Origin: Minisyncoccia bacterium
GTDB lineage: Bacteria > Patescibacteriota > Minisyncoccia > Phycocordibacterales > UBA918
NCBI GenBank assembly: GCA_041742075.1
Contig: JBGSJJ010000005.1
Location: 97,481-161,480, forward strand
DNA length: 64,000 nucleotides
Reading direction: 5' to 3'
Program-made: the position numbers and the translations under genes
Notes under the pieces: model-generated
Database searches by the model: none
What the model was told of the DNA's origin: nothing
What the model saw: only the letters and a program-made list of their open reading frames with translations
Part shown: positions 1 through 41,772 of the stretch, piece after piece
Position numbering within the stretch: the stretch's first letter is position 1
Layout of the letters: every line of letters begins with the position of its first letter

Positions 1-3000
1 TGGTGATCAGTTTGCTACTGGTGATAATCGAAACATTGAGACAACTGCGACACAGGCGCAAATTACTACCACTATTACCGAGGCGATGGTTGCCTATGGC
101 GAGTCTTCGACACTTTTCCCTCGGTATCGTATTTGGTCAGGTAGTGAGTGGAGTGAAGCAGAAAATGCTCTGAGTACCAATGCTCTCGTTGAGTGGGCCG
201 AGCTTAAAGCGGGTACAAAACGAAGTGAGTATGCACTTGCGACACTGGGTACTGATGGCGACGTTAATGTGCAAATCTATGATGGTAATGCGCGCACCTG
301 GGGCGACATGAATGAATTAGTAACTGAGATACCCGTAACTGGCTATCGAGGAGTAGACATTGCCTACGAGACTGACTCGGGTGATCTACTTGCAGTTGCC
401 TGTAGTGACGATGATGCAGTGTTTAGTGTCTGGGATGGTGCGAGCTGGAGCACTACCACGTCGCTTAGTCTCACTAAGGCGACTGATTGTCAGTTCATCA
501 AGATGGCTTCTGACCCAGACTCAGACGAAATTATTACTGTGTTTAAACACGAATTTACGGGTGATCCTGACTATGAGGCACTTGTGTGGACCGGCTCTAG
601 CTGGAGTGCGAGCAATCTCACCTTTGGTGCTATCAGTCAGGCGGCTAACGAAGGTATTACAGTAGAGTATGAAGAGTCCGGCGACCAAGCGATTGTTGCG
701 GTCGCCAACGGAGGAGGTAATAATTTTGTGTATAACACTTGGAACGGTAGTAGTTGGTCAGGTAACCTAACAAACGCTCTCCAGGATGACTTCCAGCACG
801 GTGTCTTGAAGCGTGACGTGGGTACTGATCGGATGGCACTCTGTGGTATCGACGTAGACGGACAAGTAACCAGTACAGTCTGGGACGGTTCGGCCTGGGG
901 AACTGCCTATACCCTTGATACTGCCGGAAATAGTCAGGCGGGGCGACCAGTCAGTTGTGAATTTGAAACGCTCGGTGACCGTGATGGCTATATTATGATT
1001 CCATACTCAGACACCGCCAATGCGCGCTACCAGTACGGATCGACCTCGTATTCAGGAGAGCTTGATATTACTGGCCTTAACTTGAGTAATGGTGCCTGGA
1101 CAACGCAGACAGTACGTACCAATGACGGTCTAATCCTCGCGCTATTCTTAAAAGAAGATGGGCCAGCACCGACTGATCAATATCTTTTTGCGTACTGGGA
1201 CGGTGCTTCGTGGCTTGGTCAGGATACACTTAGTAATTTGCCATCAGTTACCACCACACCATTCCATGAGTCTATCTCTATGGCCGCTCAGATTTTCCCG
1301 AACTTCGTCGACGGCACTATACGTTCAACGTCTATTAACTTTGCTGATGGCGATAGTCCGCGCTGGCAAGAAGTGTCGTGGACAGACAGTACTCCTGCTG
1401 GAAGTACGGTTGAGTATCGAGTCTACTATGAAACTGCTACGGGAACTTTTGCCCTCATACCCGAGAGTGCGTTATCGGGGAACGAAGATGGGTTTACCAC
1501 CAGTCCAATTGATATTTCTGACCTTGATAGTGATATCTATTCTGTACTTCAGCTTGAGGCTGAACTTATCTGTGATGAGGATAACTGTCCAAGTGTACTT
1601 GATTGGACTGTTGAGTGGTCTGAGGGTATCAGTATTTCTGGACTCGCGCTTGAGTATGACCAAGCAACGGCGCTCTCAACTGGTACGATAGCAGTGGCAG
1701 TAAACGGTGATTTACAGGATGGTAAGACAGCCAATATTTCGGGTACAATTGGTTCACAAGAGGAAGTTTTTGATACGGCAGGAACAAGTACTTTCTCAGT
1801 ACCGGCTGGTGTTAATGAACTCACGGTAAAGTCTTGGGGAGCGGGTGGCGGTGGCGGTGCAGGAGGTTTACGGAACGTTGGAGCGGTTGGTGGCGGTGGC
1901 GGTTTCATGCAGGGAACGCTTAGTGTGACACCCGCTGAAAATCTCACCGTTGCAGTTGGTGGCGGTGGATCATCGGGTTCATATGGTGTACCGGCTGGTG
2001 CTGGTGGTGGCGGTGGGTACTCAGGTGTGTATCGCACTTCAACACCACTTATAGTAGCCGGCGGAGGAGGTGGAGGAGGGGCTGGTGCTGGTGGTATAGG
2101 CTACGCTGGAGTCGGCGCTGAATGTGCAGTAACTGCAGCTGCTGCAACGGCTTGTTTGCCACAACTTCCAGCTGGTACGGCTGAACATGACGTACTCATC
2201 GCAGTGCTTCATTCACGAACAGATACGGCTCACACCTGTACTACTAACTGTACGGGTTGGACAGAGTTTTCTACTCAGGCCGGTGGTAACGGTCGTTTGT
2301 CAGTCTGGTGGTACCGACAAGGTACCACGACACCAACCGGACCAACCTTTGCCGGACCAACTTCAGGTTCGTACACTGGTCGAATCTGGGCTTTTAGAGG
2401 GGTGGCCCAGTCAGGTAATCCATTTGACCAGGTAAGCTCTAACACTACGCAAGGTGCGACAACCAACTACGCTGGATCAAACCTCACGAGTACCGTGTCC
2501 AACTCCATGCTGGTAATGGTTGGAGGTTCCGTTGACGATCAGGCCTGGGGACCAGGCGGTGGTTCTTGTAATGTGCCATCTGGAGCTAATGGAGATTTTT
2601 ATGCAGTCCATGCAGGCAGTAATAATAACTCAATCTTCCTCTGTTATGACGGTACACCAAGTGGTGGTACTGGTTCTCTTGGTGTACCAAGTATGACGCA
2701 AGCAGCTTCAGTGGCTGGAAGATGGTTTAACTTTAACCTTCGAGCTGAAACTTCAGTTGGGGCAGTAGCAGCGGGCGGTGGTGGAGTGGGAGGTGGCTTA
2801 ATCGGTGGCGATGGTGGTTCTGGCGACACCGCATTTAGCGCTACGGGTGGAACTATTTCCGACTTGTTTGGTTTTAGGCACCATGTTTTTACCGCGAGCG
2901 ATACGTTCGAAATCTTAAGTGGCACACGACCAATAGACCTGCTTTTGGTTGGTGGAGGTGGAGGAGGTGGCGGATACCAATTTGGCGCTGGCGGTGGTGG

Positions 3001-6000
3001 CGCTGGTGGTGTTCGAGTCTTGCAGAATCAAGCGCTCGGTGTCGATACTTACACCGTCACTATTGGTGCAGGAGGAACTGGCGGAGACAATACTGACACG
3101 TCGGCTGGAAACGGTCAGTCTGGAGGAGACTCTTCATTTGATGCCGAAGTTGCGCTTGGTGGTGGTGGTGGACTTCGTGGAGCCAGGCCAAATGATGGTT
3201 CAACTGGTTTCTTCGGTGCTTCAGGTGGCGGTGGCGGTAGTACTATTATTAACGGTGTTTCTCATACTGGCGGTACGAGCACAGCTGGTCAAGGGAATGA
3301 CGGCGGTACCGGTGGTGCCTCAAATGGAACTGACAATCAGTCGGCTGGAGGAGGAGGCGGAGCAACAGCTGTCGGTAGTAATGGTACCAATGGGACGGGA
3401 GGTGCCGGCGGTGCTGGTATAAATCTTGGCTCACTGTGGGGAACTAGTGTCGGTGCCAGTGGTTGGTTTGGTGGTGGTGGTGGTGGAAAGCGTACGAACG
3501 CGGGCGGTGATACCGCTGGTGCTGGTGGTATTGGTGGAGGCGGAGGCGGTGTTGGTGACAATAACGGTACCACCGCAACAGCCAATACCGGTGGCGGTGG
3601 TGGTGGTGGAGCAGGTACCACCGCAACGCAGTATGGTGGGACGGGTGGTTCTGGTGTCGTGATTGCTCGCTATCGTATTCCATTCCTTGGAGGGTTTGGA
3701 GGTACACAAAGTGCTGGTGGTGTAAGTGGTGGAAATGGTGCTTCAGGGTCAGCCTTTTTGGGTGGCGCTGGCGATACGGGAGTAAGTGGTGGAGCAGGAG
3801 GGGCTGGAGGTTTCTTGGGTGGCGCGTCTGGCGGTACTGGTAATAGCACGAGTTCTGAAGCTGGTGGTGGAGGTGGTGCTGGAGGCTACTACGGAGGCGG
3901 AGGTGGTGCGCGAGGTAACGCTGGACTATATTCTGGGACTGGTGGTGCTGGCGGCTCTTCGTACGCTATCGCCACCGCGACAGCGACTAGTACGATAAGT
4001 GGTTCAGGAAATACTGCTGGTAATACTGGTGACTCAGACTATGGTGGGACAGCTGGCACAGGCGGAACTGGAGGTGCACTGTCAACCGACGGTGTTTCAG
4101 GTGCTGACGGACGTGTAGTCATAAGTTGGGTTGGTTCTACCACACCAGGCACGTGGACTATTCCAAACGTGAGTGCTCAGGTTGGCGACATAATCACCGT
4201 GTTTATAGTGGCACCTGACGGCACGAAAGAAGCAGTCGCAGTAACTAAGTATGACGGTGCAGGAGACATTTCAGGTATGCAGTTAAGTGAGCGCCACCTG
4301 ACGCTTGGTTCAGATGATGAGCCTACTATTTCCAACCAAAACCTCGAGGTGTATAAAAACAACGACAACCCAAACATTTTCTTTGATGTGTCTGTGGCAG
4401 GTGTACTTAATCTCTGTGCGGAAGCAACCTGTACTGACAGTCGCTTGCGCGTCCTTGCGAGCACCACCTATCAGCCAGGCGCAAACGGTAGTGTGATTAA
4501 CTTCCAAAATAGTGGCACCTTTGCTCCAGCCACGAACACCTTGCGCGTTTTAAATAGATGGCAACAACAAGGTACGTTCCTACCGGACTCTTCAACGATT
4601 ATCTTTACTGCTACCTCTGGCACACCGACTTTAGAAAACGCCACTACGTCGTTTGTATTTAATAATGTAACCTTTGGTGAAACGACTGGTACGGCATCCT
4701 GGACCATAGACAAGCCACTAGATGTTGGTGGTGCACTTACTGTTAACTACGGCACACTGGCGCGCGGTACATCGACAATTATGGTTGCTGGTAACCTTTC
4801 CCTTGGTGCAAACGGATATATAACTGGCCTTGCCACCACCACTTTTGATGGAAGCGGTAGTAACACCTGGGGTGATGCTAAGGCGAGCGCCTCGAGTACC
4901 AACATCGGACATGTGGTTATCGATGGAACAGGTAAGACAATTACTTTGGCTGGGAATGTTGGTGCACAGACGGTCACGATTGGTGCCGATGATACGCTTA
5001 ACAGTTCTGGTTCGCCTTTTAACATAAATGTTGTGTCAGCTTGGACTAACTACAATGCTTTTATCCCGCAGTCGGGTACGGTGACGTTTATTGGTACCAC
5101 CACAGGCACCATCGCGCGTGGTACGTCAGCCTTTAACAACCTTACCTTCAGTGGAGTAGGAGGGAATTGGTCATTTGCTACAGCTACTCTTGCCTTAAAC
5201 GGTAACTTCACGATTGCTACCGGTACCGTTACGCTACCAACGGGCACGACAACGATTGCTGGTTCATTCTTAAATACTGGTGGTACTTTTGCACATAACA
5301 ACGGTGAGGTTCGTATGACCAGTACAGCAGGAGGTCGTACCATCACACAAAGTGGCACGGCGTTTCTAAACGCCTTCTATGACCTCGTGTTTGCTGGCTC
5401 AGGCTCGTGGAGCTTTAATGAAGCCAATGCAACCACTTCAAGACAGTTCAGAATTCAGTCAGGTACAGTTACCTTCCCAAGTGGAAAACTTACCGTCGGT
5501 GGTGATTTTCTCACGACTGGCTCCGGTGCCTTTGCTCACAATAATGGCGAGGTGGTTTTGCTGGTCCAGGAAACAAACAGTGTTCGAGCGAATACATCTT
5601 CATTTAACAATGTACGAACCGTTAGTGCTGCCACTGGCTCTTGGTACAACGACACCTGGAATTATCGTGTTCCAGTGGTGATTCAAGAATCACAAATTGA
5701 TGACACACTTACCAACTTCCCAGTCTATGTAAACCTGGATGACTTCAGTAGTAGCTTCTTCTCGAACGTGAAAGCTGACGGTGGCGACATCCGCGTGACT
5801 GAAAGCAACGGAATAACCGAGGTGCCAGTTGAAGTTGTTTCAATTGACACGAGTGGTACGACTGGAGAAATTTACTTTAGAGCGACATCACTTGCTTCGA
5901 CAACTAACACTACCTATTACGTGTATTACGGAAACACAACTGCTACCACTGTCGCTTCAACCACAGCCTATGGTGCTCGAAATGTGTGGAGTAATAGCTA

Positions 6001-9000
6001 TGTACTGGTGTCGCATATGGACGACTTAACGACCAGTATCGTAGAGAACAGTGCTGGGGCAGTAAATGGTATAAAGACAAACACGAGTGGTACAGCTGTT
6101 CCTGGCAACCCGCCAGAAGTTTCTACAGGTCGAATATATGAGGCACAAGACTTGAGTACGGTACCGATTCAACACACAGGTAATTTCCTCAATAGTCAAA
6201 CCCAGTATAACGTTTCGCTCTGGTTCAACCCAGACAACATCGCTGGTTCAGCTCCTCAAGAAACAAATGTATATGGTCACAGTTTATACGGTGTTTCTTC
6301 GGCTGGTAACTACGATTGGGTTTCGATAGGAGGTAGTACAGCAGGAACCTCAGCAAATAGTTCTGAAATCTGTGTTCGTGCATTTACAAATTCAACGACA
6401 TGTAATGTTACCTCGGGGACTAATCTAACTGCTGGAAACTGGTATTACCTGTCTATCAACGCAGTCCAAAATAGTACACTTACTGCTCGTGTAAACGGTA
6501 CAACGCGAGGTACATTCACAGCTGGTAATTTGGCACCTAATACAAACTTCACCATTGGTGCACTGCGTCCAAACCGAACACCACCGATTGTGTTTGATGG
6601 CCGGATTGATGAAGTACGTGTGTCCACTACAACTCGCACTGATGCCTGGCGTGATGCTGAGTATCGAAACTTGGCAACAACGACAACTTTCTACACTGTT
6701 AGTACACCAGAGACAGGGAGAACACGTACGTTTGCTGATACTAATGCTACTATCCTGGGTAACTTAGTGCTCGAAAACGGAGGAGACGCCACCTTCCCAA
6801 CTGGTGTACTCGGTATTGGTGGTTCGTTTGATAACAATGCTGACTTTACAGCAAATGGCGGTACAGTACGTTTCAATTCAACAGCTGGAGCTGAAACTAT
6901 CGCTGTTGGTAGTTCGACCTTTGCCACGCTGGACTTCAACAGCGCAACTGGAAACTTCACCGTGACCGAAAATGCCACTGCTACGGTAGCTATCAGTCTA
7001 ACGAATGTATCTCAGTTTACTTTACAAAGTGGACTGCGTTTAGCAACTGCTGGTACGTTCTCAAATGCTGCCAACGGTTCAAATACCACCTGGACTGGTT
7101 CAACACTTGCTCTCTTGGGTAGCGATCATAGTATCAATACCAAAACGAGTACCGGTGACGCGTACGGCACGCTCCAGACAACAGGTGATACAGATATCGC
7201 AATGTGGAATAGTACGTCAACCGTGTACGACACCGCCAGCACTTCCTCAATCTACTCCCAAGACCATAACGGAGTAGATGGAGACCTCTATATCTTTGGT
7301 AATTACGTACGCTCTACCGGTACTGAGTACTGGAGTTACGCCACTGACTTCGATGGCACCAATCTTGGTACGACATCTGGTCGTCAAGTAGACGTTAGGG
7401 TGGCTACCAGCAGTACCGTTGGCTTTAGTAGTTCAACGCTTAGTATGCAGGGAAGTGCAACCGCTTCAACCACTATCGATGCCCAGACGGGAGCTTTTAG
7501 CTTAAATGCCAGTAATACAACAATAACTGCTGAATACTTTACTGTGGCAGGTACAGACGCTAGTGGTTTTGGTCTACGGGCCTCGACGACGCTCAGCACC
7601 TTCCGTGACGGGTTCTTCACTGTCACTCCTGGTCGAACTGGAATAACCATCAGTAGTACAACCGTGTCGCATAACCCGTCAGCTCAGTTCTACCGGATTG
7701 GTTTTGCAACCACTTCAGCAGGTACTGCCTCAAACGTTACGTTAGTTGGTACCTCAACATCGTTTGTCTGGTTCCGTGAAGGCGGCGGCGGTCTCTATGG
7801 TGAAGCGTATGATGCAGGCGACGCTAACCCAGGGTCTGTCAGGTGGGATGATAGTTCGAACTCAATTGTGGTGTCTGGTATTGTCTACGCTGACGATGGA
7901 GTGACTCCACGAAGCTCATCTACAGTTGTCAGGATTGTGGTTGATGGTGGTACGTATACCGCAACAACCTCAAGTACTGCTGGTACGGGAGCCTATTCAT
8001 TCCCAGCCGTAAATTATATTGGTGACCCGAAAATCGTCGTGTACCTCGATACTAATGGTGGGGTAACAGGTAGTGTCGTGACGAAGACACCAACGAGCAA
8101 TATCACGAACATGCACATCTATGTCAACCGGGTTATCACGAGACACCAGGACATTTTGCCTCTTACTGCCAGTGATATGCAGTCATTTGATTTTGACAAT
8201 GATACTGACCTCCGCTTCATTGCTGCCACTACTTCACTCACGGTACTGCCAAGTACTGAACTCTTCGTGTTTGCCAGCACAACGTTTGCGCCGGGTGGTA
8301 ACGTCACGCTTCTAGGAAACGGTAGTAGTACAAGTTATGAAGGTACGCTCCAAATAGGAACAAATGCTACGTTTAGGGCTTCAAGTACCGAAACTCACAC
8401 GCTGGCCGGTCGATTTGTGATGGCTACTACCTCTACGTTTACTTCAGCCTCGTCTACCTTTATTTTTAACGCGACCACGACTGGCAAGAGTATTACCTCA
8501 CCAAATACCGTAACCTTTAACGAAATAGCCTTTACGGGAGTGGGAGGTGGTTGGAACATAACTGCTCCACTGACGGTTGTGCAAAGTATGCAGATTGCCA
8601 CTGGAACCGTGACTGGTACAAGTAATATTTCACTCCTCTATGGTTCACTCTATGGAGACGGTACTCTCTCGTTTGGAAGTGGCACTACCACACTAGCGCG
8701 CAGTAACACGTTTGGAGGAATGCGAGCTTGGACACTCAATAATCTTGTGTTGGGTAATGGAGTAAATGTAGGCACAACAACACCGGTAACAGTTGCGACA
8801 ACGACAATTCTCGGGCGGTTAACTATCGCCAGTGCACACTTCTTAGATGCGGGTAGTACAAGTTGGAACTTAAACGGCTCAGGAACAGTGTTTGTAGAAA
8901 CTGGTAATTTGCTCGAAGGAACGAGCTCCTTTAGGTACAGTGGTGCCAGTTCAAGTATCTTGTCTACGACGTACTACAACCTTGAGCTCAATGCTGGTTC

Positions 9001-12000
9001 ACCAAACCCTGTTTATACCGCAGTGGGAAGTGGTATCAATGTACTCAATGACTTGGTGGTAGGTGGTACCGCTAGTACGACAGTAAACTTTGCCACGAAT
9101 GACCCAGTTCTAGCGGTTGGAAATGATATGCGTATCCAACCAAACGGTACGTTCATTGCGAGCGATAGTGGTCTCTTCACCATTACCGGCAGTTATGACA
9201 ACAACGGAGTCTTTACTGGTAGTAACGGTACGACCACGTTTATCGGTAGTGGTTCTGAAACAATTTCCGCCGGCAATTCAGCTTTTAGTAGCGTGAACAT
9301 AAATGGGACTGGTTCGTTTACCATCACCGAAAATGCTACCAGTACCGGAGCCTTTACACTCACGAACCACGCAAACTTTACCGTTGCGAGCGGTCAAACA
9401 CTTTCTTTTGGCGGAGCCTTTACTAATACGCTTGGAGGTGGCGCTACTACCTTTGCGAGTAGCACACTTCACTTCTATGGCGGTAATACAAAATCTATTA
9501 ACGCCTCAACCACAAGTGATAGTTATGAAACGCTATCAGTTGCATCAGGTACTAATGTACGTATGTGGAATAGTAATGCGATTACGTATGCCGCTACTGG
9601 AGGTATTTACTCACAAGACCATAATGGCAATAATGGATTACTACATATCTATGGTGCGTATACCTCAAGTGCTAACAATGATTATTGGAGTTACGCTACT
9701 GACTTTGATGGGACGAGTCTCGTCGGTGGAAGTGAACGTCAGGCAGTGGTAGCTTTGGCTTCCAGTGCAAGTGCAAGTTATTCTGGCGGCAGTCTCACCG
9801 TACTTGGTAGTACTACTGCTACTACGTCTATCACCAACCAAGGCAGTGGAATCTACGGTCTTACAATTGGAGGTACCACTGCCACTAATTGGAACCATGT
9901 TTCGATTCGTGACATAAATAGTTCAGGAGTGGTATTTGGTGGCTCACCAACGGTAGCTAACTTCTCAAACACCGACCACTTAGTGAAAATTAATAGTGCA
10001 ACAGCCGTTACTGTCGGAGGGTCTGTGATAAACGCTAACGAAGCCAAGAGCTTTACCGGAAACATTTTTGAAGCAGACCTCGGCGTAACTGGTGCAGTAA
10101 ACGTTACTGCAACAGGTACTGCAGTTAGTTCATGGCGCTTTACCCTTCATTCGGGTGATATTGCTGGGGAGGCGTATGACTCTGACCCACAAGGAGACCC
10201 AGGCTACATAACCTGGGATGACTCCGCCGCTTCCATTACGGTTTCTGGAACAGTCTATAGTGACGAAAGTAGTACACTCTCAAATGTATGCGATGGAGTT
10301 ACGCAAAATATTCGTCTCGTTGTTAAGAGTGAGACCACTGATAAGGCGTACGATATGACCTGTGACGCAACAACTCGCGTGTATAGTACGAGTAGTGTGG
10401 CCTATAGTCCGAATGATTTACTTGTCGTGTACATTGTTGGAGAAACAGAAAAAGCAACCAGCGCTACTACCGAACCAATTTCCTCCATCAATAATTTACA
10501 TCTGATTGAAAACCGAGTTATTGTACGTCATGAAAGTACCAATCCGCTCACAATTGCGCGAATGTCGCTCTGGGACTCTTCAGATGATTCTGATATTCAG
10601 TACACCGCCGTCAACGCGACGCCTGACACCCTTACTATCCCAGCAGACCGCAAGCTCCTTATTTGGACTGGTAAGACGTTTGAACCAAATGGTAACGTGA
10701 CAGTCAGTGGTGGTGGTAGCGGTTCCGCCGAAGATGGGACCCTTGAAGCCCAAACCAATGCGCGCTTTAGAGCAAGTAGTACGGTAGCACAAGTACACTC
10801 AATTGGAGGGAGCTTTATCTTCAATACGGGAGCGGTGTTCGAATCAGCTCTTTCAACCACCAGCTTTACGACGACAGGAAGCGGGCGCACAATCGATGTA
10901 AATGAAGGTGCTTTCAGTAACGCTTCCTTTAGCGGTAGCGGTAGTTGGAATGTGACTGATCCAACACTTACTGTCCGTGGAAGCTTACTCCAATCAGCTG
11001 GGGCACTCACTTTCGGTACAGCAACGACTACCATTGGACGCTCCTTTAACGCGACAGGAGGAAGCTTTACTATCAATAACAGCCCACTTATCTTTACTAG
11101 TACAACGACAGGTAACACCGTTCGTTTTGACGATTCACCGGTAGCCTCTATGTACTTTACTGGTACCAGTGGAGCCTGGACACTGGCTGACACCAACGCT
11201 ACAGCGACTCAATCGGTAATAGTTGAACGAGGAACGTTGACTTTCCCAAGTGGAAACTTCGCTATTGGTGGTAGTCTTCGAAATGTAAGTGGAGCTTTTG
11301 TTCACAATACGGCAGACCTGATTATGACCGCCACTACGTCAGCTTTGGTGCGAGCAAGTAGTTCAGATCTCTACGCTATTCGATTTGCTGGAGCTGGTCC
11401 ATTTACGCTTGAAGATGTCAGTACTACCTTCCGTGATAACTTCACTATTGCCTCTGGCACCGTCACTGTCGGCACCGGTACACTCGCTGTTGGTGGTTCG
11501 TTTGATACTACTGGTGGGGTATTCAATCACGCTTCCGGTACGGTGCTCCTTAATGCATCAGCGGTGGGTAAGACAGTTAATCCTGGTTCTAGTCCGTTTT
11601 ATAACCTACAGATTGGCGCGCCAGCAGGGGGGTATACCTTCTTGAATGCTACAACCACTAATAATCTCACCTTTGCGAGTGTGAGCAACTTCACCCAGCA
11701 GTCGGGTAGTCGACTCTACGTTGGGGGTGTCTTCAGTAACGTTGTGCAGAATGCTTCAACCACCTGGACTGGTAGTACACTGGCTCTTGGTCCAAACCAG
11801 GCCTACAACGTAAATAGCCGAACCAATTCTGGCGACACCTACGGTACGCTCACGATTGACGCAAATAGCGACATTCGGTTCTGGTATTCAAGCGCCGCTA
11901 CGACTACCGTCGCTTCTACAGCTTCGCTCTATTCACAAGACCATAACAACACCAATGGCGCACTCTATATCTATGGAGACTTCGGAATTAGCTCTACCAC

Positions 12001-14845
12001 TGAGTACTGGAACTATGCTCGTGATTTTGACGGCACTGTACTTACTAGTGCTGAGCGTCCTGTCGTGGTTTCTCATGCTTCAAATGCAACGACAACTGTC
12101 TCCGGAGGTACGCTTGAGATGGTTGGTGTACTCGGCAACGTCACGACGATTCAAAATCAAGGAGCTGGATCATATACTTTTATAGTGTCGGGCGGAACCT
12201 TCGAAGCAAATCACTATGAGTTTAATCACCTCAACATAAGTGGTCTACAGCTCAGTGGTACACCAACTATCACAGATTTGTCAGATGGATATTTTGAAGT
12301 GGCAGTCGATACTACGTCACTTATTACCTTGTCTTCAACCACCCTAAATGCCAATGCCTCGAAAATATTTGATAATGTTGGCTTCAACGCCGTCGGTCCG
12401 CTGTCTGGAAATAACATAAATCTAGTCGGAGAGACCAGTAATGCTTGGCGTTTCACCAATAGTTATGGAAATATTGATGGAGAAGGTTTTGACATTGATG
12501 GTATTGATGCTTGTGGATCTATCCGTTTTGACGACAGTTCTTGTCTCCTTACTGAACAAACACACGTCCGTTGGCGCTACGATGATGGGGGTGAAGGTGC
12601 TCCTGATAGCGAGTGGTACAATGACAGCTTTGACTACCGCAAGCGTATCAGAGTCGTGAACGAAGATGCTCAGAGCTACGCTTCAACTGCGGTAAAGGTA
12701 CAGGTTACCTACGATAGTGATATGCAAGCCAACTTCGAGGACTTGCGCTTCACGAGTGATGATGGACAAACACTTATTCCGCACTGGGTAGAAAAGTATA
12801 CCGCCAGTACCGACGCACAAGTCTGGGTGAGGGTACCTACTATGACGGCGAGCGATAACGCAACAGTCTTTATGTATTACGGTAGCAGTACAGCCCCAAG
12901 TGTCAGTTCCGGGTTGTCTACTTTTGATGTGTTTGATGACTTTGAGGATAACGACATTTCTGAGTACAGTGGGGCAACATCATTGTTCCAGACCACAGCA
13001 TCACCTGTTTATGGTGGAAGTTATGCCCTTCAAGCTTCCAACCCGCTTGGTAGAACTCAAACTGGAGGTATCTACCTAACTGACCAAACGACCGAGGAAG
13101 GTCAAATAATCCGCTTCACGCAGTACGTTGGTAGTGATAGTAATGATGCCTGTACACTGTTTGGCGTCCAGTCTGGTACATTAAACTACGCATTTTGTAT
13201 GATTCGATTTGGTGTAGACCGCATCGCGTTGGTTCAAGATGTGGAAGACAGTGATTCTTCAGGTACTAAACTTGCGTCTTCGTCCGCATCGTTTACGTCA
13301 GGCTGGTATGAGGTTGAGATTGACTGGCGAGCTAACAACACGGTGACTGCCTATATGTACAATTCTTCTGGATCGCTTGTCGCTTCAACTTCAGCTACCG
13401 GTGTCACGAGCTATGATGATGGTGGGTATGGCTTTACGTATTGGATAAACAACGGAGCGTGGGATAGCTATACTGCTCGTCCAGCCGGACCACGTCGTCC
13501 GCAAGTGTTTACCGGTATTGAGCAGACTTTCGGTGGCGCCACTTGGGCCGGAGCACTCGATGCACCAGCCAACGTCTTCCAACCAGGCGATACCGCTCGG
13601 CTACGTATTGCAATCGAAAACTCTGGTCTCGATATTACCAACCAGCAGTTCTTACTTGAGTATGCAGAAAAGGGCAATGCACCTAGTTGTGAAGCGGTTG
13701 CGGCTGGAGATTTTGATCCTGTACCGAACCAAGCTTCCTGTGGTCTCTCACCAGTGTGTATGCAGACCTCAACATTCATTGCCGATGGAGACGCGACAAC
13801 CGATCAGTTGTTTGGTACCAACGGTACCTTTGCTCCTGGTGAAATGGTGGAAAGCCCTTCTAGTAAAACAGGTGCACTTGATGTTGATCAGGATAATTAT
13901 ACCGAAATAGAGTATGTACTGACGCCAACCGTAAATGCGTCTGATGCCCTTTGTTTTAAAGCAACAAATGATGGAACCGATCTTGATTTCTACGCTACGG
14001 TGGCGGAACTTGGTCTTCAGTTTGATCCGATCCTAACGGGTATGAGTATTAATGGTGGTGGGGTGATTAGACTTACCCCAGGTACGACGACTCCGATTTA
14101 CGCGACGGGTACCGTGAGTGACTTTAACGGGTATCAAGACATTGTTTCAGCGACTACTACCTTCTACCGCAGTACCTCAAGTGCGGCCTGTCTCCCAGAT
14201 ACTAATAACTGCTACATTGCCACGTCAGCTTCATCAACCTATAGTGCCATCGCTTCAACGACCTGTAGCTTTACGTTGTGTTCAGGTAACAGCTGTACAC
14301 TCTCCTGTGTCGCCCATATGTATTACAACGCTGATCCAACCGATATGGGTACCTTTGAAGGTCAGGAATGGCTAGCGTTTGTCGAAGTTGAAGATGCGGG
14401 TAATGGCTATGACTTTGAAACAACACCAGGGGTTATCCTCGAGACACTTAGGTATATCGACGTAAGTAACGGTATCGATTATGGAGAGCTTACTCCGGAT
14501 ACAAACACTGGTAGCTATAACGCCTCAACAACTATCATCAACCTAGGTAACGAAAACCTCGACATCAACATTGAGTCAACTGACCTCTTGGGACTTAGTG
14601 GCTCATCAATTCCAGCCTTTAGACAGAAATTCTCTACCTCTACCTTTGATTACGATACGTGTGGACTGGCTTGTACAGCGCTCTCTTCGTCTTCACTTGT
14701 GAGTGCTCCGCTTGATTTACCAAAACCATTACTACCGGCGCCATTTATTAGTGACGATCTGTATTGGGGAATCTACGTACCGTTTGGTACCGGAGCGAGT
14801 GCGCACCAGGGAGTTAACACCCTCTACCCAGTAGCTGAGGATTAA
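1..14845 (+). CDS. Giant secreted/surface repeat protein, 5'-partial (more than 4919 aa). Domains in order: N-terminal W-x-G-S-x-W-S repeat modules; a Gly-rich low-complexity tract; parallel beta-helix-like repeats of about 40 aa; two DUF2341-like modules; a LamG/concanavalin-like region; three tandem repeats of about 780 aa; a Cys-containing C-terminal region.
   Basis: The reading frame is open from window position 2 with no upstream stop, so the N-terminus lies outside the window. DUF2341-like motifs at about nt 5660 (WNYRVPVVIQ...GGDIRVTESNG...YYVYYGN) and nt 12637 (YRKRIRVVNED...LRFTSDDGQTLIPHWVE...VFMYYGSS). The YSQDHNG...EYWSYATDFDGT motif occurs three times, at about nt 7250, 9606 and 11930. 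Gly-rich GGGGGAGG tracts lie at nt 1850-4100. Confidence 0.85.
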   Translation, partial: GDQFATGDNRNIETTATQAQITTTITEAMVAYGESSTLFPRYRIWSGSEWSEAENALSTNALVEWAELKAGTKRSEYALATLGTDGDVNVQIYDGNARTWGDMNELVTEIPVTGYRGVDIAYETDSGDLLAVACSDDDAVFSVWDGASWSTTTSLSLTKATDCQFIKMASDPDSDEIITVFKHEFTGDPDYEALVWTGSSWSASNLTFGAISQAANEGITVEYEESGDQAIVAVANGGGNNFVYNTWNGSSWSGNLTNALQDDFQHGVLKRDVGTDRMALCGIDVDGQVTSTVWDGSAWGTAYTLDTAGNSQAGRPVSCEFETLGDRDGYIMIPYSDTANARYQYGSTSYSGELDITGLNLSNGAWTTQTVRTNDGLILALFLKEDGPAPTDQYLFAYWDGASWLGQDTLSNLPSVTTTPFHESISMAAQIFPNFVDGTIRSTSINFADGDSPRWQEVSWTDSTPAGSTVEYRVYYETATGTFALIPESALSGNEDGFTTSPIDISDLDSDIYSVLQLEAELICDEDNCPSVLDWTVEWSEGISISGLALEYDQATALSTGTIAVAVNGDLQDGKTANISGTIGSQEEVFDTAGTSTFSVPAGVNELTVKSWGAGGGGGAGGLRNVGAVGGGGGFMQGTLSVTPAENLTVAVGGGGSSGSYGVPAGAGGGGGYSGVYRTSTPLIVAGGGGGGGAGAGGIGYAGVGAECAVTAAAATACLPQLPAGTAEHDVLIAVLHSRTDTAHTCTTNCTGWTEFSTQAGGNGRLSVWWYRQGTTTPTGPTFAGPTSGSYTGRIWAFRGVAQSGNPFDQVSSNTTQGATTNYAGSNLTSTVSNSMLVMVGGSVDDQAWGPGGGSCNVPSGANGDFYAVHAGSNNNSIFLCYDGTPSGGTGSLGVPSMTQAASVAGRWFNFNLRAETSVGAVAAGGGGVGGGLIGGDGGSGDTAFSATGGTISDLFGFRHHVFTASDTFEILSGTRPIDLLLVGGGGGGGGYQFGAGGGGAGGVRVLQNQALGVDTYTVTIGAGGTGGDNTDTSAGNGQSGGDSSFDAEVALGGGGGLRGARPNDGSTGFFGASGGGGGSTIINGVSHTGGTSTAGQGNDGGTGGASNGTDNQSAGGGGGATAVGSNGTNGTGGAGGAGINLGSLWGTSVGASGWFGGGGGGKRTNAGGDTAGAGGIGGGGGGVGDNNGTTATANTGGGGGGGAGTTATQYGGTGGSGVVIARYRIPFLGGFGGTQSAGGVSGGNGASGSAFLGGAGDTGVSGGAGGAGGFLGGASGGTGNSTSSEAGGGGGAGGYYGGGGGARGNAGLYSGTGGAGGSSYAIATATATSTISGSGNTAGNTGDSDYGGTAGTGGTGGALSTDGVSGADGRVVISWVGSTTPGTWTIPNVSAQVGDIITVFIVAPDGTKEAVAVTKYDGAGDISGMQLSERHLTLGSDDEPTISNQNLEVYKNNDNPNIFFDVSVAGVLNLCAEATCTDSRLRVLASTTYQPGANGSVINFQNSGTFAPATNTLRVLNRWQQQGTFLPDSSTIIFTATSGTPTLENATTSFVFNNVTFGETTGTASWTIDKPLDVGGALTVNYGTLARGTSTIMVAGNLSLGANGYITGLATTTFDGSGSNTWGDAKASASSTNIGHVVIDGTGKTITLAGNVGAQTVTIGADDTLNSSGSPFNINVVSAWTNYNAFIPQSGTVTFIGTTTGTIARGTSAFNNLTFSGVGGNWSFATATLALNGNFTIATGTVTLPTGTTTIAGSFLNTGGTFAHNNGEVRMTSTAGGRTITQSGTAFLNAFYDLVFAGSGSWSFNEANATTSRQFRIQSGTVTFPSGKLTVGGDFLTTGSGAFAHNNGEVVLLVQETNSVRANTSSFNNVRTVSAATGSWYNDTWNYRVPVVIQESQIDDTLTNFPVYVNLDDFSSSFFSNVKADGGDIRVTESNGITEVPVEVVSIDTSGTTGEIYFRATSLASTTNTTYYVYYGNTTATTVASTTAYGARNVWSNSYVLVSHMDDLTTSIVENSAGAVNGIKTNTSGTAVPGNPPEVSTGRIYEAQDLSTVPIQHTGNFLNSQTQYNVSLWFNPDNIAGSAPQETNVYGHSLYGVSSAGNYDWVSIGGSTAGTSANSSEICVRAFTNSTTCNVTSGTNLTAGNWYYLSINAVQNSTLTARVNGTTRGTFTAGNLAPNTNFTIGALRPNRTPPIVFDGRIDEVRVSTTTRTDAWRDAEYRNLATTTTFYTVSTPETGRTRTFADTNATILGNLVLENGGDATFPTGVLGIGGSFDNNADFTANGGTVRFNSTAGAETIAVGSSTFATLDFNSATGNFTVTENATATVAISLTNVSQFTLQSGLRLATAGTFSNAANGSNTTWTGSTLALLGSDHSINTKTSTGDAYGTLQTTGDTDIAMWNSTSTVYDTASTSSIYSQDHNGVDGDLYIFGNYVRSTGTEYWSYATDFDGTNLGTTSGRQVDVRVATSSTVGFSSSTLSMQGSATASTTIDAQTGAFSLNASNTTITAEYFTVAGTDASGFGLRASTTLSTFRDGFFTVTPGRTGITISSTTVSHNPSAQFYRIGFATTSAGTASNVTLVGTSTSFVWFREGGGGLYGEAYDAGDANPGSVRWDDSSNSIVVSGIVYADDGVTPRSSSTVVRIVVDGGTYTATTSSTAGTGAYSFPAVNYIGDPKIVVYLDTNGGVTGSVVTKTPTSNITNMHIYVNRVITRHQDILPLTASDMQSFDFDNDTDLRFIAATTSLTVLPSTELFVFASTTFAPGGNVTLLGNGSSTSYEGTLQIGTNATFRASSTETHTLAGRFVMATTSTFTSASSTFIFNATTTGKSITSPNTVTFNEIAFTGVGGGWNITAPLTVVQSMQIATGTVTGTSNISLLYGSLYGDGTLSFGSGTTTLARSNTFGGMRAWTLNNLVLGNGVNVGTTTPVTVATTTILGRLTIASAHFLDAGSTSWNLNGSGTVFVETGNLLEGTSSFRYSGASSSILSTTYYNLELNAGSPNPVYTAVGSGINVLNDLVVGGTASTTVNFATNDPVLAVGNDMRIQPNGTFIASDSGLFTITGSYDNNGVFTGSNGTTTFIGSGSETISAGNSAFSSVNINGTGSFTITENATSTGAFTLTNHANFTVASGQTLSFGGAFTNTLGGGATTFASSTLHFYGGNTKSINASTTSDSYETLSVASGTNVRMWNSNAITYAATGGIYSQDHNGNNGLLHIYGAYTSSANNDYWSYATDFDGTSLVGGSERQAVVALASSASASYSGGSLTVLGSTTATTSITNQGSGIYGLTIGGTTATNWNHVSIRDINSSGVVFGGSPTVANFSNTDHLVKINSATAVTVGGSVINANEAKSFTGNIFEADLGVTGAVNVTATGTAVSSWRFTLHSGDIAGEAYDSDPQGDPGYITWDDSAASITVSGTVYSDESSTLSNVCDGVTQNIRLVVKSETTDKAYDMTCDATTRVYSTSSVAYSPNDLLVVYIVGETEKATSATTEPISSINNLHLIENRVIVRHESTNPLTIARMSLWDSSDDSDIQYTAVNATPDTLTIPADRKLLIWTGKTFEPNGNVTVSGGGSGSAEDGTLEAQTNARFRASSTVAQVHSIGGSFIFNTGAVFESALSTTSFTTTGSGRTIDVNEGAFSNASFSGSGSWNVTDPTLTVRGSLLQSAGALTFGTATTTIGRSFNATGGSFTINNSPLIFTSTTTGNTVRFDDSPVASMYFTGTSGAWTLADTNATATQSVIVERGTLTFPSGNFAIGGSLRNVSGAFVHNTADLIMTATTSALVRASSSDLYAIRFAGAGPFTLEDVSTTFRDNFTIASGTVTVGTGTLAVGGSFDTTGGVFNHASGTVLLNASAVGKTVNPGSSPFYNLQIGAPAGGYTFLNATTTNNLTFASVSNFTQQSGSRLYVGGVFSNVVQNASTTWTGSTLALGPNQAYNVNSRTNSGDTYGTLTIDANSDIRFWYSSAATTTVASTASLYSQDHNNTNGALYIYGDFGISSTTEYWNYARDFDGTVLTSAERPVVVSHASNATTTVSGGTLEMVGVLGNVTTIQNQGAGSYTFIVSGGTFEANHYEFNHLNISGLQLSGTPTITDLSDGYFEVAVDTTSLITLSSTTLNANASKIFDNVGFNAVGPLSGNNINLVGETSNAWRFTNSYGNIDGEGFDIDGIDACGSIRFDDSSCLLTEQTHVRWRYDDGGEGAPDSEWYNDSFDYRKRIRVVNEDAQSYASTAVKVQVTYDSDMQANFEDLRFTSDDGQTLIPHWVEKYTASTDAQVWVRVPTMTASDNATVFMYYGSSTAPSVSSGLSTFDVFDDFEDNDISEYSGATSLFQTTASPVYGGSYALQASNPLGRTQTGGIYLTDQTTEEGQIIRFTQYVGSDSNDACTLFGVQSGTLNYAFCMIRFGVDRIALVQDVEDSDSSGTKLASSSASFTSGWYEVEIDWRANNTVTAYMYNSSGSLVASTSATGVTSYDDGGYGFTYWINNGAWDSYTARPAGPRRPQVFTGIEQTFGGATWAGALDAPANVFQPGDTARLRIAIENSGLDITNQQFLLEYAEKGNAPSCEAVAAGDFDPVPNQASCGLSPVCMQTSTFIADGDATTDQLFGTNGTFAPGEMVESPSSKTGALDVDQDNYTEIEYVLTPTVNASDALCFKATNDGTDLDFYATVAELGLQFDPILTGMSINGGGVIRLTPGTTTPIYATGTVSDFNGYQDIVSATTTFYRSTSSAACLPDTNNCYIATSASSTYSAIASTTCSFTLCSGNSCTLSCVAHMYYNADPTDMGTFEGQEWLAFVEVEDAGNGYDFETTPGVILETLRYIDVSNGIDYGELTPDTNTGSYNASTTIINLGNENLDINIESTDLLGLSGSSIPAFRQKFSTSTFDYDTCGLACTALSSSSLVSAPLDLPKPLLPAPFISDDLYWGIYVPFGTGASAHQGVNTLYPVAED

Positions 14846-14863: not shown

Positions 14864-16375
14864 ATGAAACGGAGTTTCGCTTCTATTTTTTTGACGTTCT
14901 TTTTTGTCGCAACGGTAACGTATGCGCAATCGAGTGACGTCAGGCCCCCAACTATCTCTGGAGTACAAATTGAGCAGGTGTCGCCAACTGAAGTAAACAT
15001 TACGTGGCAGACCGATGAGGACGCTGACTCACTCGTTAACTACGGACTCAAACCCGATTACGGAATTGTGCGTATTCCCGACCCCAGTCGAGTAACGCAT
15101 AGCGTGACGCTCGATGAACTCGAGCCAGGCAGACAGTATTACTTCCGCGTTGTTTCAGCCGATGCTGAAGGGAACCAAGGTATCTCGGCTGATTACAAAA
15201 TTCAGACTGATGCCGAGCCGTCAGAAAACTCTGGCTCTGGAGCAGGGGAGGGGCAAGCAGAAAGTGCTGGCGAGGGTCAAGGATCAGGTCAAAGTCCGGG
15301 ACAAGGAGGGAATCAGTCAACGACTGAAGAAATTGTCGAGCAGATTGAACAAATAACCGAAGTTACTCAACTCCAAGAAATTCTGGAAGTAACGATTCAG
15401 GCAATTCAGGGTATAACCGACGACCTTACTATTATCGGTCCGCCAACTGTCATTCCTGAAACAACGACCGCCATTGTCCGTTGGACCACTGACCGCGATG
15501 CCGATTCCACAGTGTTATTTTCAAGAACAAGTGGTTTCAATGGTACAGACTATGCCTTTTCTCAATCAAGTACCGGTGGAGCCACGCGAGACCATGAAGT
15601 ACAGCTCATTGGACTAGAGTCATTTACTGACTATAGCTTCAAAGTGCAATCAACTGACGCTCTTGGCGTACTCGGGGAAAGTCGTAATTTTACTTTCAAA
15701 ACTAAGGCGTCGTTACCAGATATTCGCAACCTTCGTATCGTAAAAGTAGAAGAAAGTTCAGCTACGATTGCTTGGGAAACTACTGTGCCAGCTAAAGCAC
15801 TCATTGAGTATCAAGACCTCACGACCGGTGTACAGAACTCAATCGGTCGACCGACCCTAGCGACGACGCACCAAATGCGTATCGCTGACCTTACGCTTGG
15901 TACTCGCTACGTTGCCTTCGTGGTGGCTGAAAACTCCGGTGGTGACCGTGTCCGCAGTCAGCCAATTACCTTTATTACGACCCGTGACTCAGCGCCACCA
16001 ATCATTAGCAACGTCACAAACGAATCAACCATTTTCCCGGGCGGTGAATCGCGTATTCAAACTATTGTGGAGTGGCGTACCGATGAACCTGCGTACTGTA
16101 CGATGACGTATCGTGAAGGAGTGGCCGGTGGTGTCGACCCAGTGACGCTAGAAGACGAAGAAATTAACTACACTGAACGTCACGTGAAGGTGATTATCGA
16201 TTTTGCTTCTGCCACTGTGTATCAGTTCTGGCTTAACTGTACTGATGAGGCTGGAAACGCCATCCAGTCAGAAAATTTTGTACTCTTTACACCGGTCCAA
16301 GAGAAAAACATTATCGACTTGATTCTCGAGAACTTTGAGTCAACATTTGGATGGGTAAAGAATATAACGGGGTAA
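14864..16375 (+). CDS. Secreted protein with fibronectin type III-like repeats of the kind found at the N-terminus of purple acid phosphatases, and an internal acidic Gly/Gln-rich linker.
   Basis: Signal peptide MKRSFASIFLTFFFVATVTYAQS. Repeated motifs of the form ...W.TDE.ADS.V.YG.....G.......THSV.L..L.PG..YYFRV.S.D..GN appear at least four times. Confidence 0.7.
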   Translation: MKRSFASIFLTFFFVATVTYAQSSDVRPPTISGVQIEQVSPTEVNITWQTDEDADSLVNYGLKPDYGIVRIPDPSRVTHSVTLDELEPGRQYYFRVVSADAEGNQGISADYKIQTDAEPSENSGSGAGEGQAESAGEGQGSGQSPGQGGNQSTTEEIVEQIEQITEVTQLQEILEVTIQAIQGITDDLTIIGPPTVIPETTTAIVRWTTDRDADSTVLFSRTSGFNGTDYAFSQSSTGGATRDHEVQLIGLESFTDYSFKVQSTDALGVLGESRNFTFKTKASLPDIRNLRIVKVEESSATIAWETTVPAKALIEYQDLTTGVQNSIGRPTLATTHQMRIADLTLGTRYVAFVVAENSGGDRVRSQPITFITTRDSAPPIISNVTNESTIFPGGESRIQTIVEWRTDEPAYCTMTYREGVAGGVDPVTLEDEEINYTERHVKVIIDFASATVYQFWLNCTDEAGNAIQSENFVLFTPVQEKNIIDLILENFESTFGWVKNITG

Positions 16376-16677: not shown

Positions 16678-18000
16678 ATGGCAAAACCGCTCATTGTGTG
16701 TCGAAATCTCGACATCATCTACAACAAAGGAAAATCAAACGAATTTAGAGCACTTCAAAATGCTAGTACTGACATCTATGAAGGTGAGTACATTATTCTG
16801 TTCGGTGCGTCTGGTTCAGGTAAGTCTACCCTCATGTATGCCATCCAGGGCTCACTGCCACCAGGCGGAGGAACCATGCTTATTGGTGGGGAAGACATTT
16901 ACAATATCCCGGTTGATGACCGTATCTACTTTCAACGATACATCATGGGTATTATCTTCCAGTCATTTAACCTGATTGGGTCTCTTTCGGTACTCGACAA
17001 TGTAGCCCTGCCGATGATTTTTGCTAACGTGAATAAGCCAACCCGCGAACGTCGCGCACAATCGCTTCTCGAGCGGTTTGGTGTTGGTCACGTCTCACAC
17101 AAGATCCCAGCGATGCTTTCCGGAGGTCAGCAACAACGTGTTTCAGTAGCACGGTCGATGGTTAATGACCCTAAGATTCTTCTGGCTGACGAACCGACCG
17201 GTAACCTCGACTCGGTTTCGACTCAGCAAGTAATGGACAAAATTGATGAAATTAACACGTTCGATAAACGCACAATTATCATGGTGTCGCACAACGCGGC
17301 CCACTTGAGCTACGCCCACCGTGTGTACTACCTCAAAGACGGTTTTATTGTCCGTGAAGTGGTAAACCCACAGCGTAAGCAAATCAAACCGGTAAAAGAG
17401 GGGGAGACGATTGTAACTGAACTCGAACAGCTCGCCCGGCTTTTCCCCTATGACTCAGTTGATACCCTTCGCGTAAAAAGTTTAGTAAATCTCCTCACGC
17501 AGGAGTATACCTTTGATCAACTTGAGCGAATGGAACGGGTGATGAGCTTCTTGATTGAAGGTAAGGTGGATAAAACTGCCGTCATAAAGGCCCTAGTCCT
17601 CCCGTACGAACAAGGTGGTGTCGGGATACCGGAAAAAGATGCGCGAAAAATGGTACATATCGCTACTAAGATTGTTGGACAAGCAGAGGATATTCGGCGC
17701 TTCAGAAAAAAGCATACTGATGACCATGTATTTTTTGACCAGCACCGTCTTGCTGAACGATTGCGCGACCATCTTCTCCAATCATATCGTCTCGCTCTTT
17801 CAAAAAAGCAAGATGAAAACTTGGTTGAACTCATCGCTGACCGAGTGGTTGGTGTGAGTGGGGAAGATGAATTTAATGCTGAGCTCATGAAAGGTGTGAG
17901 TGTCGGTGGGTTAGCTCTTTCAGAAAAAGAGGCCGATGACCTCACTCGCTATTTTGAAAAAATTATTGCCCTTGGTGTGGATGTAAGCTACAAGTCGTAG
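16678..18000 (+). CDS. ABC transporter ATP-binding protein of the FtsE/LolD/MacB family, with an unusual C-terminal extension of about 200 aa.
   Basis: Walker A GASGSGKST, ABC signature LSGGQQQRVSVARS, Walker B ILLADEPTGNLD, H-loop MVSHN. The ATPase core ends near residue 230; residues 230-440 are extra. Confidence 0.85.
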   Translation: MAKPLIVCRNLDIIYNKGKSNEFRALQNASTDIYEGEYIILFGASGSGKSTLMYAIQGSLPPGGGTMLIGGEDIYNIPVDDRIYFQRYIMGIIFQSFNLIGSLSVLDNVALPMIFANVNKPTRERRAQSLLERFGVGHVSHKIPAMLSGGQQQRVSVARSMVNDPKILLADEPTGNLDSVSTQQVMDKIDEINTFDKRTIIMVSHNAAHLSYAHRVYYLKDGFIVREVVNPQRKQIKPVKEGETIVTELEQLARLFPYDSVDTLRVKSLVNLLTQEYTFDQLERMERVMSFLIEGKVDKTAVIKALVLPYEQGGVGIPEKDARKMVHIATKIVGQAEDIRRFRKKHTDDHVFFDQHRLAERLRDHLLQSYRLALSKKQDENLVELIADRVVGVSGEDEFNAELMKGVSVGGLALSEKEADDLTRYFEKIIALGVDVSYKS

Positions 18001-18009
18001 AGAAAGTTT

Positions 18010-18018
18010 TGCTATACT
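18010..18018 (+). promoter_or_regulatory. Extended -10 promoter element TGCTATACT, 6 nt upstream of the ATG at 18025 (leaderless candidate).
   Basis: Exact 9-mer shared with 25275, 55719 and 58683. Confidence 0.5.
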
Positions 18019-18024
18019 GACCAT

Positions 18025-26328: not shown

Positions 26329-26329
26329 T

Positions 26330-41211: not shown

Positions 41212-41220
41212 TATCTTTCT

Positions 41221-41769: not shown

Positions 41770-41772
41770 ATT

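Follow-up and report, generated by a model that had tools for sequence, protein, structure and literature searches.

A stretch of 64,000 nucleotides (nt) from a Minisyncoccia bacterium (assembly GCA_041742075.1, contig JBGSJJ010000005.1, positions 97,481 to 161,480) was analysed and is called the window here. Its first 14.8 kb hold the 3′ part of a giant gene. Judged from its sequence, the product is a member of a conserved, uncharacterised family of giant proteins in Paceibacteria/Parcubacteria, which belong to the candidate phyla radiation (CPR, Patescibacteria). It carries the C-terminal block of this family with the terminal motif, 2.5 positional repeat units and the same downstream synteny. 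We think it fairly likely that the product is a membrane-anchored, fibrous, adhesin-like protein, which would act as the attachment fibre of an episymbiotic CPR bacterium. Only beta-rich modules of binding or structural type were detected in the part of the protein that lies in the window. The features of the gene, with amino acid (aa) positions of the window protein, are as follows.

2–14845, + strand: 3′ part of the giant gene, 4,947 codons plus TAA, running on upstream of the window
89–1321, + strand: eight W-x-G-x-x-W repeats of ~50 aa (aa ~30–440), from motif positions
1319–1771, + strand: conserved post-propeller module (aa ~440–590), called module p
1775–4171, + strand: Gly-rich tract (aa ~592–1390) with two Gly_rich_2 matches, from Pfam PF21722 and the glycine profile
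4199–5641, + strand: beta-solenoid-like region, rich in T/S/G/N and with internal repeats of ~80 aa (aa ~1400–1880), from self-similarity
5642–6721, + strand: DUF2341 (nt 5777–5968), then a Laminin_G_3 / ConA-like lectin domain (nt 6191–6646), from a Pfam tile scan
6728–9082, + strand: repeat unit R1 (aa 2243–3027), from tile self-BLAST and an AlphaFold2 (AF2) model
9083–11404, + strand: repeat unit R2 (aa 3028–3801), 38% aa and 47% nt identity to R1
11405–12571, + strand: R3, the first half of a unit only (aa 3802–4190; ~385 aa), 37–40% aa identity to R1 and R2
12599–14842, + strand: family-wide conserved C-terminal block (748 aa; aa 4200–4947), collinear in 33 giant representatives

Extent of the giant gene and its family

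The plus-strand frame that begins at nt 2 has no stop up to nt 14842 and ends with TAA at 14843–14845. It holds 4,947 codons, or 4,919 aa when counted from the first in-frame ATG at nt 86. No open reading frame (ORF) of more than 200 aa was found in any other frame of the giant-gene region. The Logan contig SRR28170467_25320, found through the identical product of the neighbouring 503-aa gene, is identical to window positions 4864–26375 with 0 mismatches (21.5 kb). The giant product on this contig is at least 5,528 aa long, since it still reaches the contig start. The first 600 residues of the window protein were used as the query for an orthologue search, which returned two loci, L002 and L003. 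They are 75% and 72% identical to the window protein, respectively. Given this identity and the labels of all other relatives, we regard the label of L002, Saccharibacteria, as a doubtful bin label. L003 is from the Candidatus Paceibacteria metagenome-assembled genome (MAG) JTS-AC455. Residue 1 of the window protein aligns with residue ~2,886 of L003, counted from the L003 start Met, and the two proteins are collinear over 1,722 aa, up to the end of the L003 contig. An initial annotation of the window had described a single 14.8-kb ORF that continues past the window start. The stop-free frame, the 5,528-aa product on the identical contig and the collinearity with L003 all bear this out.

In L003 the giant frame opens directly after a hairpin, and its N-terminus, MYLKAFFQKIPGWLIAIFTLSIGLFVYATID, is a hydrophobic anchor. 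The full-length protein of the window is probably ~7,800 aa, of which the window holds the C-terminal two-thirds, because the upstream part is assumed to be as long as in L003. This length fits the longest family representatives, which are 7,696 and 7,622 aa. An exact search with 59 nt of the window start against genome and metagenome contigs gave no match. In Pfam searches the N-terminal 2,900 aa of L003 had LamG and fn3/immunoglobulin (Ig)-like domains and no enzyme domain. This upstream part also contains repeated modules of ~100 aa (L003 4610–5929) with sub-threshold matches to BclA_C and TNF-like domains (C1q-type jelly roll). When the window protein was compared with L003, pS was 0.63–0.83 and pN was 0.14–0.19. 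Synonymous sites are saturated, and dN/dS is ~0.1 where it can be estimated. The giant gene is intact and under purifying selection.

To collect the family, cluster representatives were searched exhaustively by HMMER, with one of the repeat units as the query (E ≤ 1e-3). Standard homologue searches returned proteins of at most ~1,400 aa, and giant relatives came only from the exhaustive search. It gave 542 representatives, 208 of these at E ≤ 1e-30. Dozens are 5,300–7,700 aa long, each with 5–10 matched stretches. Named homologues came from Candidatus Paceibacterota, Kaiserbacteria, Pacebacteria, Minisyncoccia and the Parcubacteria group, and were annotated only as "hypothetical" or "DUF2341 domain-containing protein". 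Most of the full-length members mapped have the module order B-Ra-Rb-Ra-Rb-Ra-(d)-C, with 2.5 copies of a ~780-aa unit, and most end in ...KP....D.LYWGI.VPFGT....H.G.NTF.A..D. The numbers of propeller and DUF2341-LamG modules differ between members.

The closest known proteins are uncharacterised giant DUF2341 proteins of 5,300–7,700 aa (for example P0072, P0060, P0047 and P0045), which have the same C-terminal block, terminal motif, units and module order. Giant DUF2341 proteins of Paceibacteria/Parcubacteria also have the same fn3, ABC and 620-aa genes downstream. The window protein, L002, L003 and two others differ from most family members in carrying a Gly_rich_2 insertion of ~800 aa. Giant adhesin-like DUF2341 proteins of Patescibacteria are a known kind, and public data hold hundreds of unannotated members of the present family. 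In the literature we found no description of the architecture of the family, its ancestral 2.5-unit core, its conserved head or its gene neighbourhood. Literature searches on lectin/laminin surface proteins of Parcubacteria returned nothing useful.

Repeat units, C-terminal block and other modules

The repeat motif YSQDHN is located at aa 2418, 3203 and 3977 (nt 7253, 9608 and 11930), so that successive motifs lie 2355 and 2322 nt apart. These are the places given in the initial annotation (about 7250, 9606 and 11930), which had read the region as three near-identical repeats of about 780 aa. Two of the three, R1 and R2, are full units, whereas R3 is a half unit of ~385 aa. The copies are not near-identical. 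In a codon-aware alignment, pairwise identity among R1, R2 and R3 was 37–40% in amino acids, ~47% in nucleotides and 33–37% at third codon positions. Protein tiles of the region aligned at 33–47% identity in tile self-BLAST. The longest exact run common to the copies is 13–18 nt, and self-blastn gave only a 33-nt match (88%) and a 26-nt match (92%). The copies are saturated at synonymous sites.

Each copy was also compared with the units of 17 other giants (4,100–7,700 aa). In most of these giants, including P0072, P0045, P0050, P0048 and P0041, R1, R2 and R3 best matched the first, second and third unit, respectively. On P0072, on-position scores were 291, 305 and 397 bits versus 127–186 bits off-position. 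Exceptions, for R1 or R3, were P0060, P0047, P0059, P0073 and P0062. Since the copies match the same-position copies in most giants compared, the sequence comparison indicates that the triplication is ancestral and predates the diversification of the family. The saturated synonymous sites and this positional orthology lend no support to the earlier suggestion of recent duplication or ongoing recombination. Assembly collapse, to which the region had been thought prone, is likewise not borne out, as the copies are diverged and the separate Logan assembly is identical across all three of them.

R1 is predicted to consist of a solenoid, a conserved core (YSQDHNG...EYWSYATDFDGT), a small transthyretin/CarboxypepD_reg-like sandwich and a second solenoid. 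The AF2 model of the unit (alignment n=25; mean predicted local distance difference test, pLDDT, 80.6) consists almost entirely of short beta strands in regular succession, with the small sandwich in the middle. Foldseek against PDB gave nothing at E ≤ 1e-3. Its weak matches included the beta-helical adhesins TibA, Ag43, EtpA, EspP and Pet, and further pectate and rhamnogalacturonan lyases, tailspikes and transthyretin- or pilin-like small sandwiches. A viral structure library gave the same picture. The PDB sequence search of the unit had no meaningful match. The model is consistent with a beta-helix-like unit.

The C-terminal block has 55 homologues at 43–60% identity, and 33 giants are collinear over ~740 aa of it. 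DUF2341 comes first in it, then a jelly roll of galectin/ConA-like type and three Ig-like sandwiches rich in Cys, and the motif LYWGIYVPFGT...H.G.NT lies at its end. The C-terminus of the window protein is PKPLLPAPFISDDLYWGIYVPFGTGASAHQGVNTLYPVAED, and the family motif is carried by its end, ...DDLYWGIYVPFGTGASAHQGVNTLYPVAED. The second DUF2341 (aa 4244–4319; nt 12731–12958) scored 79.8 bits in its tile, and Pfam had no match after it. A PDB sequence search of the block gave no meaningful match. The AF2 model of the block, built from 33 sequences (pLDDT 79.3), has a DUF2341 sandwich, a jelly roll and three Ig-like sandwiches. In Foldseek the jelly roll matched the galectin-like structure 1oq1 (TMt 0.59, rmsd 4.2) and also a GH43 C-terminal domain. 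The sandwiches matched MG/Ig strings, integrin legs, filamin, S-layer proteins and extender repeats of RTX adhesins at E 1e-4 to 1e-6.

For the whole window protein, DUF2341 (PF10102) scored 92.8 bits in two stretches, against a gathering score of 23.4. The first of these (aa 1926–1989) scored 37.6 bits in its tile (E 3.1e-09). Laminin_G_3 (PF13385) follows at aa 2064–2215 with 34.4 bits (E 3e-08; gathering score 27.6). All three domains are thus above their gathering scores in the Pfam profile search, and the two DUF2341 modules and LamG region of the initial annotation hold. In the solenoid-like region upstream, aa 1710–1772 and 1791–1853 are 52% identical, and the region also resembles aa 3600–3900. 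It corresponds to module B, which precedes the repeat units in nearly all mapped members.

The W-x-G-x-x-W motif occurs at aa 45, 144, 196, 247, 294 and 399, with degenerate copies at ~93 and ~343 and a period of ~50 aa. The array is homologous to secreted proteins of ~440 aa, some fused to FG-GAP/VCBS domains and some with pilin-like N-termini. We infer a beta-propeller-like module. Pfam on this propeller family gave sub-threshold noise only, and a PDB search with its profile had no meaningful match. A second copy of the array (38% identity) lies upstream in L003. The array had been placed at the N-terminus of the protein. It is present, with six intact and two degenerate motifs, but not at the true N-terminus, as in L003 ~2,885 residues precede the part that aligns with the window protein. 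Module p, which follows, is present 2–3 times in most members, and L003/L002 have one further copy.

The Gly-rich tract, described earlier as ~750 aa long, was recovered at aa ~600–1390 and carries two Gly_rich_2 (PF21722) matches. Its glycine content is 26–45% per 100 aa, with a Gly-poor island that contains Cys pairs at aa ~700–900. The matches are at aa 968–1225 (nt 2903–3676; 79.4 bits, E 5e-22) and aa 592–709 (nt 1775–2128; 30.8 bits, E 3.6e-07), with a gathering score of 24.3. The part at aa ~946–1226 (nt 2837–3679) matches phrog_2295 (E 1.3e-40) and phrog_863 of the tail category (E 6e-16). A tblastn search of the domain against 50,697 phage genomes gave one marginal match, so the link to phages comes from the PHROG profiles only. 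A PDB sequence search of aa 560–1400 returned nothing, hence no detectable sequence match to gp38 adhesin structures there. Literature searches on PF21722/Gly_rich_2 gave nothing useful. The tract was found in only 4 of 65 large homologues, and it is under constraint (dN/dS ~0.09 versus L003). From these profile matches, the Gly-rich module may be common to phages and CPR surface proteins.

The window part of the protein is acidic and rich in T, G and S. It has 34 Cys, mostly as close pairs, and no transmembrane (TM)-like segment (maximum KD19 1.49). Nearly all of the listed representatives of 5,500–7,700 aa start with an N-terminal hydrophobic anchor, followed by a shared IHVFP..V..GW motif. 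Searches of the window protein against Pfam, NCBIfam and PDB sequences revealed no catalytic domain, and NCBIfam had no match to it at all.

Gene neighbourhood

All credible genes of the window are on the plus strand, and no tRNA gene was found in it. The genes directly downstream of the giant gene are as follows.

14864–16375, + strand: secreted fn3 / Pur_ac_phosph_N protein (503 aa), from Pfam, with a signal-peptide-like N-terminus; 18 nt 3′ of the giant gene
16678–19233, + strand: ABC ATPase (440 aa) and MacB_PCD/FtsX permease (402 aa), from Pfam; position kept in four other loci, L004–L007
19333–21198, + strand: 621-aa membrane-anchored paralogue of the last ~300 residues of the giant protein, from BLASTP

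The fn3 gene also follows the giant gene in L004–L007. The order giant-fn3-ABC-MacB is kept in L004, L005, L006 and L007, even where the C-terminal block is only 45% identical. The 621-aa protein is 31% identical to the giant C-terminus (E 3e-14) and has the same terminal YWGI.VP...G.NTF motif; a gene of ~620 aa is found at its position in L004, L005 and L007. Further downstream are a 317-aa protein and then a Big_6/DUF4215/dockerin protein. The ABC ATPase (16678–18000) is ~200 aa longer than a plain ABC_tran domain, and its C-terminal extension has no Pfam match. Pfam searches of the window genes detected no components of pilus, two-partner secretion (TPS), type I secretion system (T1SS) or sortase type.

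Surface proteins with cohesin and dockerin domains adjoin the giant-gene cluster at window 22252–23361, 26294–28093 and 28766–29518. A cohesin protein is also encoded directly upstream of the giant gene in L003 (417–1961). This suggests cohesin-dockerin assembly of surface proteins in the CPR lineage of the window and L003. At 31172–37354 lies a 2,060-aa ORF that has a TM segment at its N-terminus, matches no Pfam domain and is weakly similar to the Ig-like part of the C-terminal block (E 5e-05). It is followed at 37364–40019 by two overlapping paralogous genes of 343 and 552 aa (25% identity, E 3e-13). The 343-aa product has a weak, sub-threshold match to WxLIP_PGBD (DUF916-like) and a C-terminal TM segment, and the 552-aa product has LytR_C. 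The pair recalls WxL loci of Firmicutes, and no WxL domain was detected anywhere. A WxL cell-wall-binding domain had been considered for the giant protein from its C-terminal motif and the nearby WxLIP_PGBD match. It was rejected, as the last 260 aa had no Pfam match at E ≤ 10. The same domain was rejected for the 621-aa paralogue, also with no Pfam match at E ≤ 10. DsbA-like, AhpC/TSA-type and DsbD-type genes are located at 40543–42516, downstream of the giant gene. They fit the closely paired Cys of the giant protein, which suggests oxidative folding of exported proteins.

Proposed function and alternative explanations

The initial annotation had called the product a giant surface protein related to attachment factors. 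The N-terminal anchor of the orthologues, the lack of any other TM segment in the window part and the paired Cys agree with this. The all-beta predictions, the lectin-like, Ig-like and propeller-like modules and the lack of a detected catalytic domain agree with it as well. In the mechanism that we propose, the protein would be exported by Sec and remain attached through the helix at its N-terminus. A stalk, possibly tens of nanometres long or more, would be built from the solenoid and Ig modules. With this stalk the protein would hold out its lectin-like domains and C-terminal head towards a substrate or the surface of a host or partner cell. The Gly-rich, phage-tail-like insertion of a few lineages would add or alter binding specificity.

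Such a fibre agrees with two published proposals. Giant DUF2341/FhaB proteins (>4,000 aa) were noted in Patescibacteria and proposed as adhesins (PMC11809585). In Vampirococcus, giant membrane proteins were linked to the fibrous surface and host attachment (PMC8080830). By description, the family is like the giants of Vampirococcus lugosii (PMC8080830) and Omnitrophota (bioRxiv 10.1101/2023.11.21.568195), ultra-small host-dependent bacteria that spend much of a small genome on membrane-anchored giants with a proposed role in host recognition and attachment. The reported domain sets differ. Vampirococcus giants have WD40, PKD and saposin domains, and those of Omnitrophota have SecA-like, dockerin and antiparallel beta-helix domains.

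Among adhesins of diderm bacteria, FhaB/EtpA of TPS and the autotransporters Ag43/TibA likewise have a very long, all-beta, T/S/G/N-rich, solenoid-like stalk without an enzyme domain. In the fold search with the repeat unit, beta-helical adhesins of this kind ranked highest, with weak similarity below significance. Unlike them, the giant protein showed no TPS domain, C-terminal beta-barrel or outer membrane partner, and would instead be anchored by an N-terminal helix. Pfam had no match to the TPS domain (Haemagg_act) in the window protein or in the N-terminal 2,900 aa of L003, and no TpsB partner was seen among the neighbouring genes. There was also no Pfam match to an autotransporter translocator, and the C-terminus was modelled as Ig-like sandwiches. 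Giant RTX adhesins (LapA, MpIBP and SiiE-type) follow the same logic of an anchored end, a long repetitive extender and a distal lectin-like cluster. Tandem extender repeats of one such adhesin from Aeromonas (6xi1/6xi3) are among the fold matches of the C-terminal model (E ~1e-4). RTX adhesins have many near-identical BIg repeats of ~100 aa, whereas the giant protein has few, long (780 aa) and diverged ones. No RTX nonapeptide repeat (HemolysinCabind) and no T1SS signal were found, and the adjacent ABC transporter is of MacB_PCD/FtsX type and not HlyB. With the phage proteins of phrog_2295 and phrog_863 / Gly_rich_2, the giant protein has only the inserted Gly-rich module in common. Polyglycine receptor-binding domains (PMC12032242) offer an analogy to this module that may serve as a lead.

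Several points weigh against an attachment fibre. The adhesion role is argued by analogy and from the kinds of domain present. For the repeat unit, assignment as a beta-helix is weak, with no PDB match at E ≤ 1e-3 and TM values of 0.1–0.2, and the propeller fold of the W-motif array is a prediction. The N-terminal anchor of the window gene is taken from relatives, namely L003 and most full-length representatives. The linkage to the ABC transporter could reflect genome relatedness only, because all syntenic loci are from one bacterial class.

The protein could also be a structural component of the envelope, such as an S-layer-like coat, a spacer or a protective "fuzz", with lectin domains that would attach to wall polymers of the same cell. 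We consider this unlikely but worth keeping in view. Among the fold matches of the C-terminal model are S-layer proteins (SbsC 4uj6 and Deinococcus HPI 8cka), and conservation of the C-terminal block and of the copy number is strong throughout the family, as expected of a structural part. The surrounding region also encodes many other surface proteins, including those with cohesin, dockerin and Big domains. However, S-layer proteins are usually far shorter, very abundant and self-assembling. The lineage-variable binding modules, namely the Gly-rich tract in 4/65 and the changing numbers of propeller and DUF2341 modules, agree more with changing targets than with a fixed lattice.

The attachment fibre might in turn belong to a larger apparatus. 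The giant protein, the fn3 protein, the MacB-type ABC transporter and the 621-aa paralogue would then form a dedicated, unrecognised surface-fibre system of Paceibacteria. In it, a MacB-type mechanotransducer would help to assemble, tension or release the fibre, and host specificity would be set by the Gly-rich module, a receptor-binding cassette exchanged horizontally. We offer this as a speculation with a rather low chance of being right.

It is improbable that the solenoid units are enzymes, that is, parallel beta-helix polysaccharide lyases or depolymerases, tailspike-like, that would degrade wall or capsule polymers of the host. Giant genes of the predatory Omnitrophota were linked to cell-wall degradation (bioRxiv 10.1101/2023.11.21.568195). 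The weak fold matches of the unit include pectate lyase, rhamnogalacturonan lyase, isopullulanase, GH87, the HK620 tailspike and Klebsiella phage depolymerases, but these enzyme-like matches are at E > 1e-3 (PDB) with TM 0.1–0.2. No family of glycoside hydrolases, lyases or peptidases emerged from Pfam, NCBIfam and PDB sequence searches, and the residues that are invariant in the unit (G, W, D, F, G and R around YSQDHNG...DFDGT) fit no recognised catalytic motif.

A tip adhesin associated with type IV pili, like PilY1, is very improbable. It would be based on the annotation of DUF2341 in type IV pili-like systems: the domain occurs in large proteins of archaeal type IV pilus loci that were likened to PilY1 (PMC4858521). 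Pilin-like N-termini or a "PilX" label are also seen in some homologues of the W-motif module. However, neither the window nor the gene tables for the syntenic loci showed PilB/T/C/M/N/O or prepilin peptidase genes. On visual inspection, full-length members (L003 and the representatives) lack a class III (prepilin) G/FTLIE-type motif at their N-termini.

That the repeats arose by recent duplication, form a recombination hotspot or reflect an artefact of assembly, or that the ORF is mis-assembled or a pseudogene, is scarcely credible in view of the low identity and short exact runs of the copies, their positional orthology in most members compared, the uninterrupted 14.8-kb ORF, the identical Logan assembly and the dN/dS of ~0.1. 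Orthologous giant genes are split in two other MAGs of Paceibacterota, GCA_041389025.1 and GCA_041389005.1. In L004 (1–12952) the gene is divided into 2998+2498+60+983 aa, and in L005 (1–12994) into many fragments. The neighbouring MacB permease gene of L005 is split too, which points to indel errors of the assemblies in both loci and not to real pseudogenes.

Few uncultured CPR bacteria are as widespread as Paceibacteria. A gene of ~23 kb would take up a considerable part of the small genomes that CPR bacteria usually have. The giant gene is nevertheless kept despite its size, with a dN/dS of ~0.1, a fixed repeat number, and a conserved head and neighbours. The repeats are old and diverged, and therefore the region is neither an assembly hazard nor evidence of ongoing recombination. 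Since the gene is conserved despite its size, the family is a concrete candidate for an attachment apparatus, whose LamG domain, C-terminal head and Gly-rich insert could be expressed for binding work.

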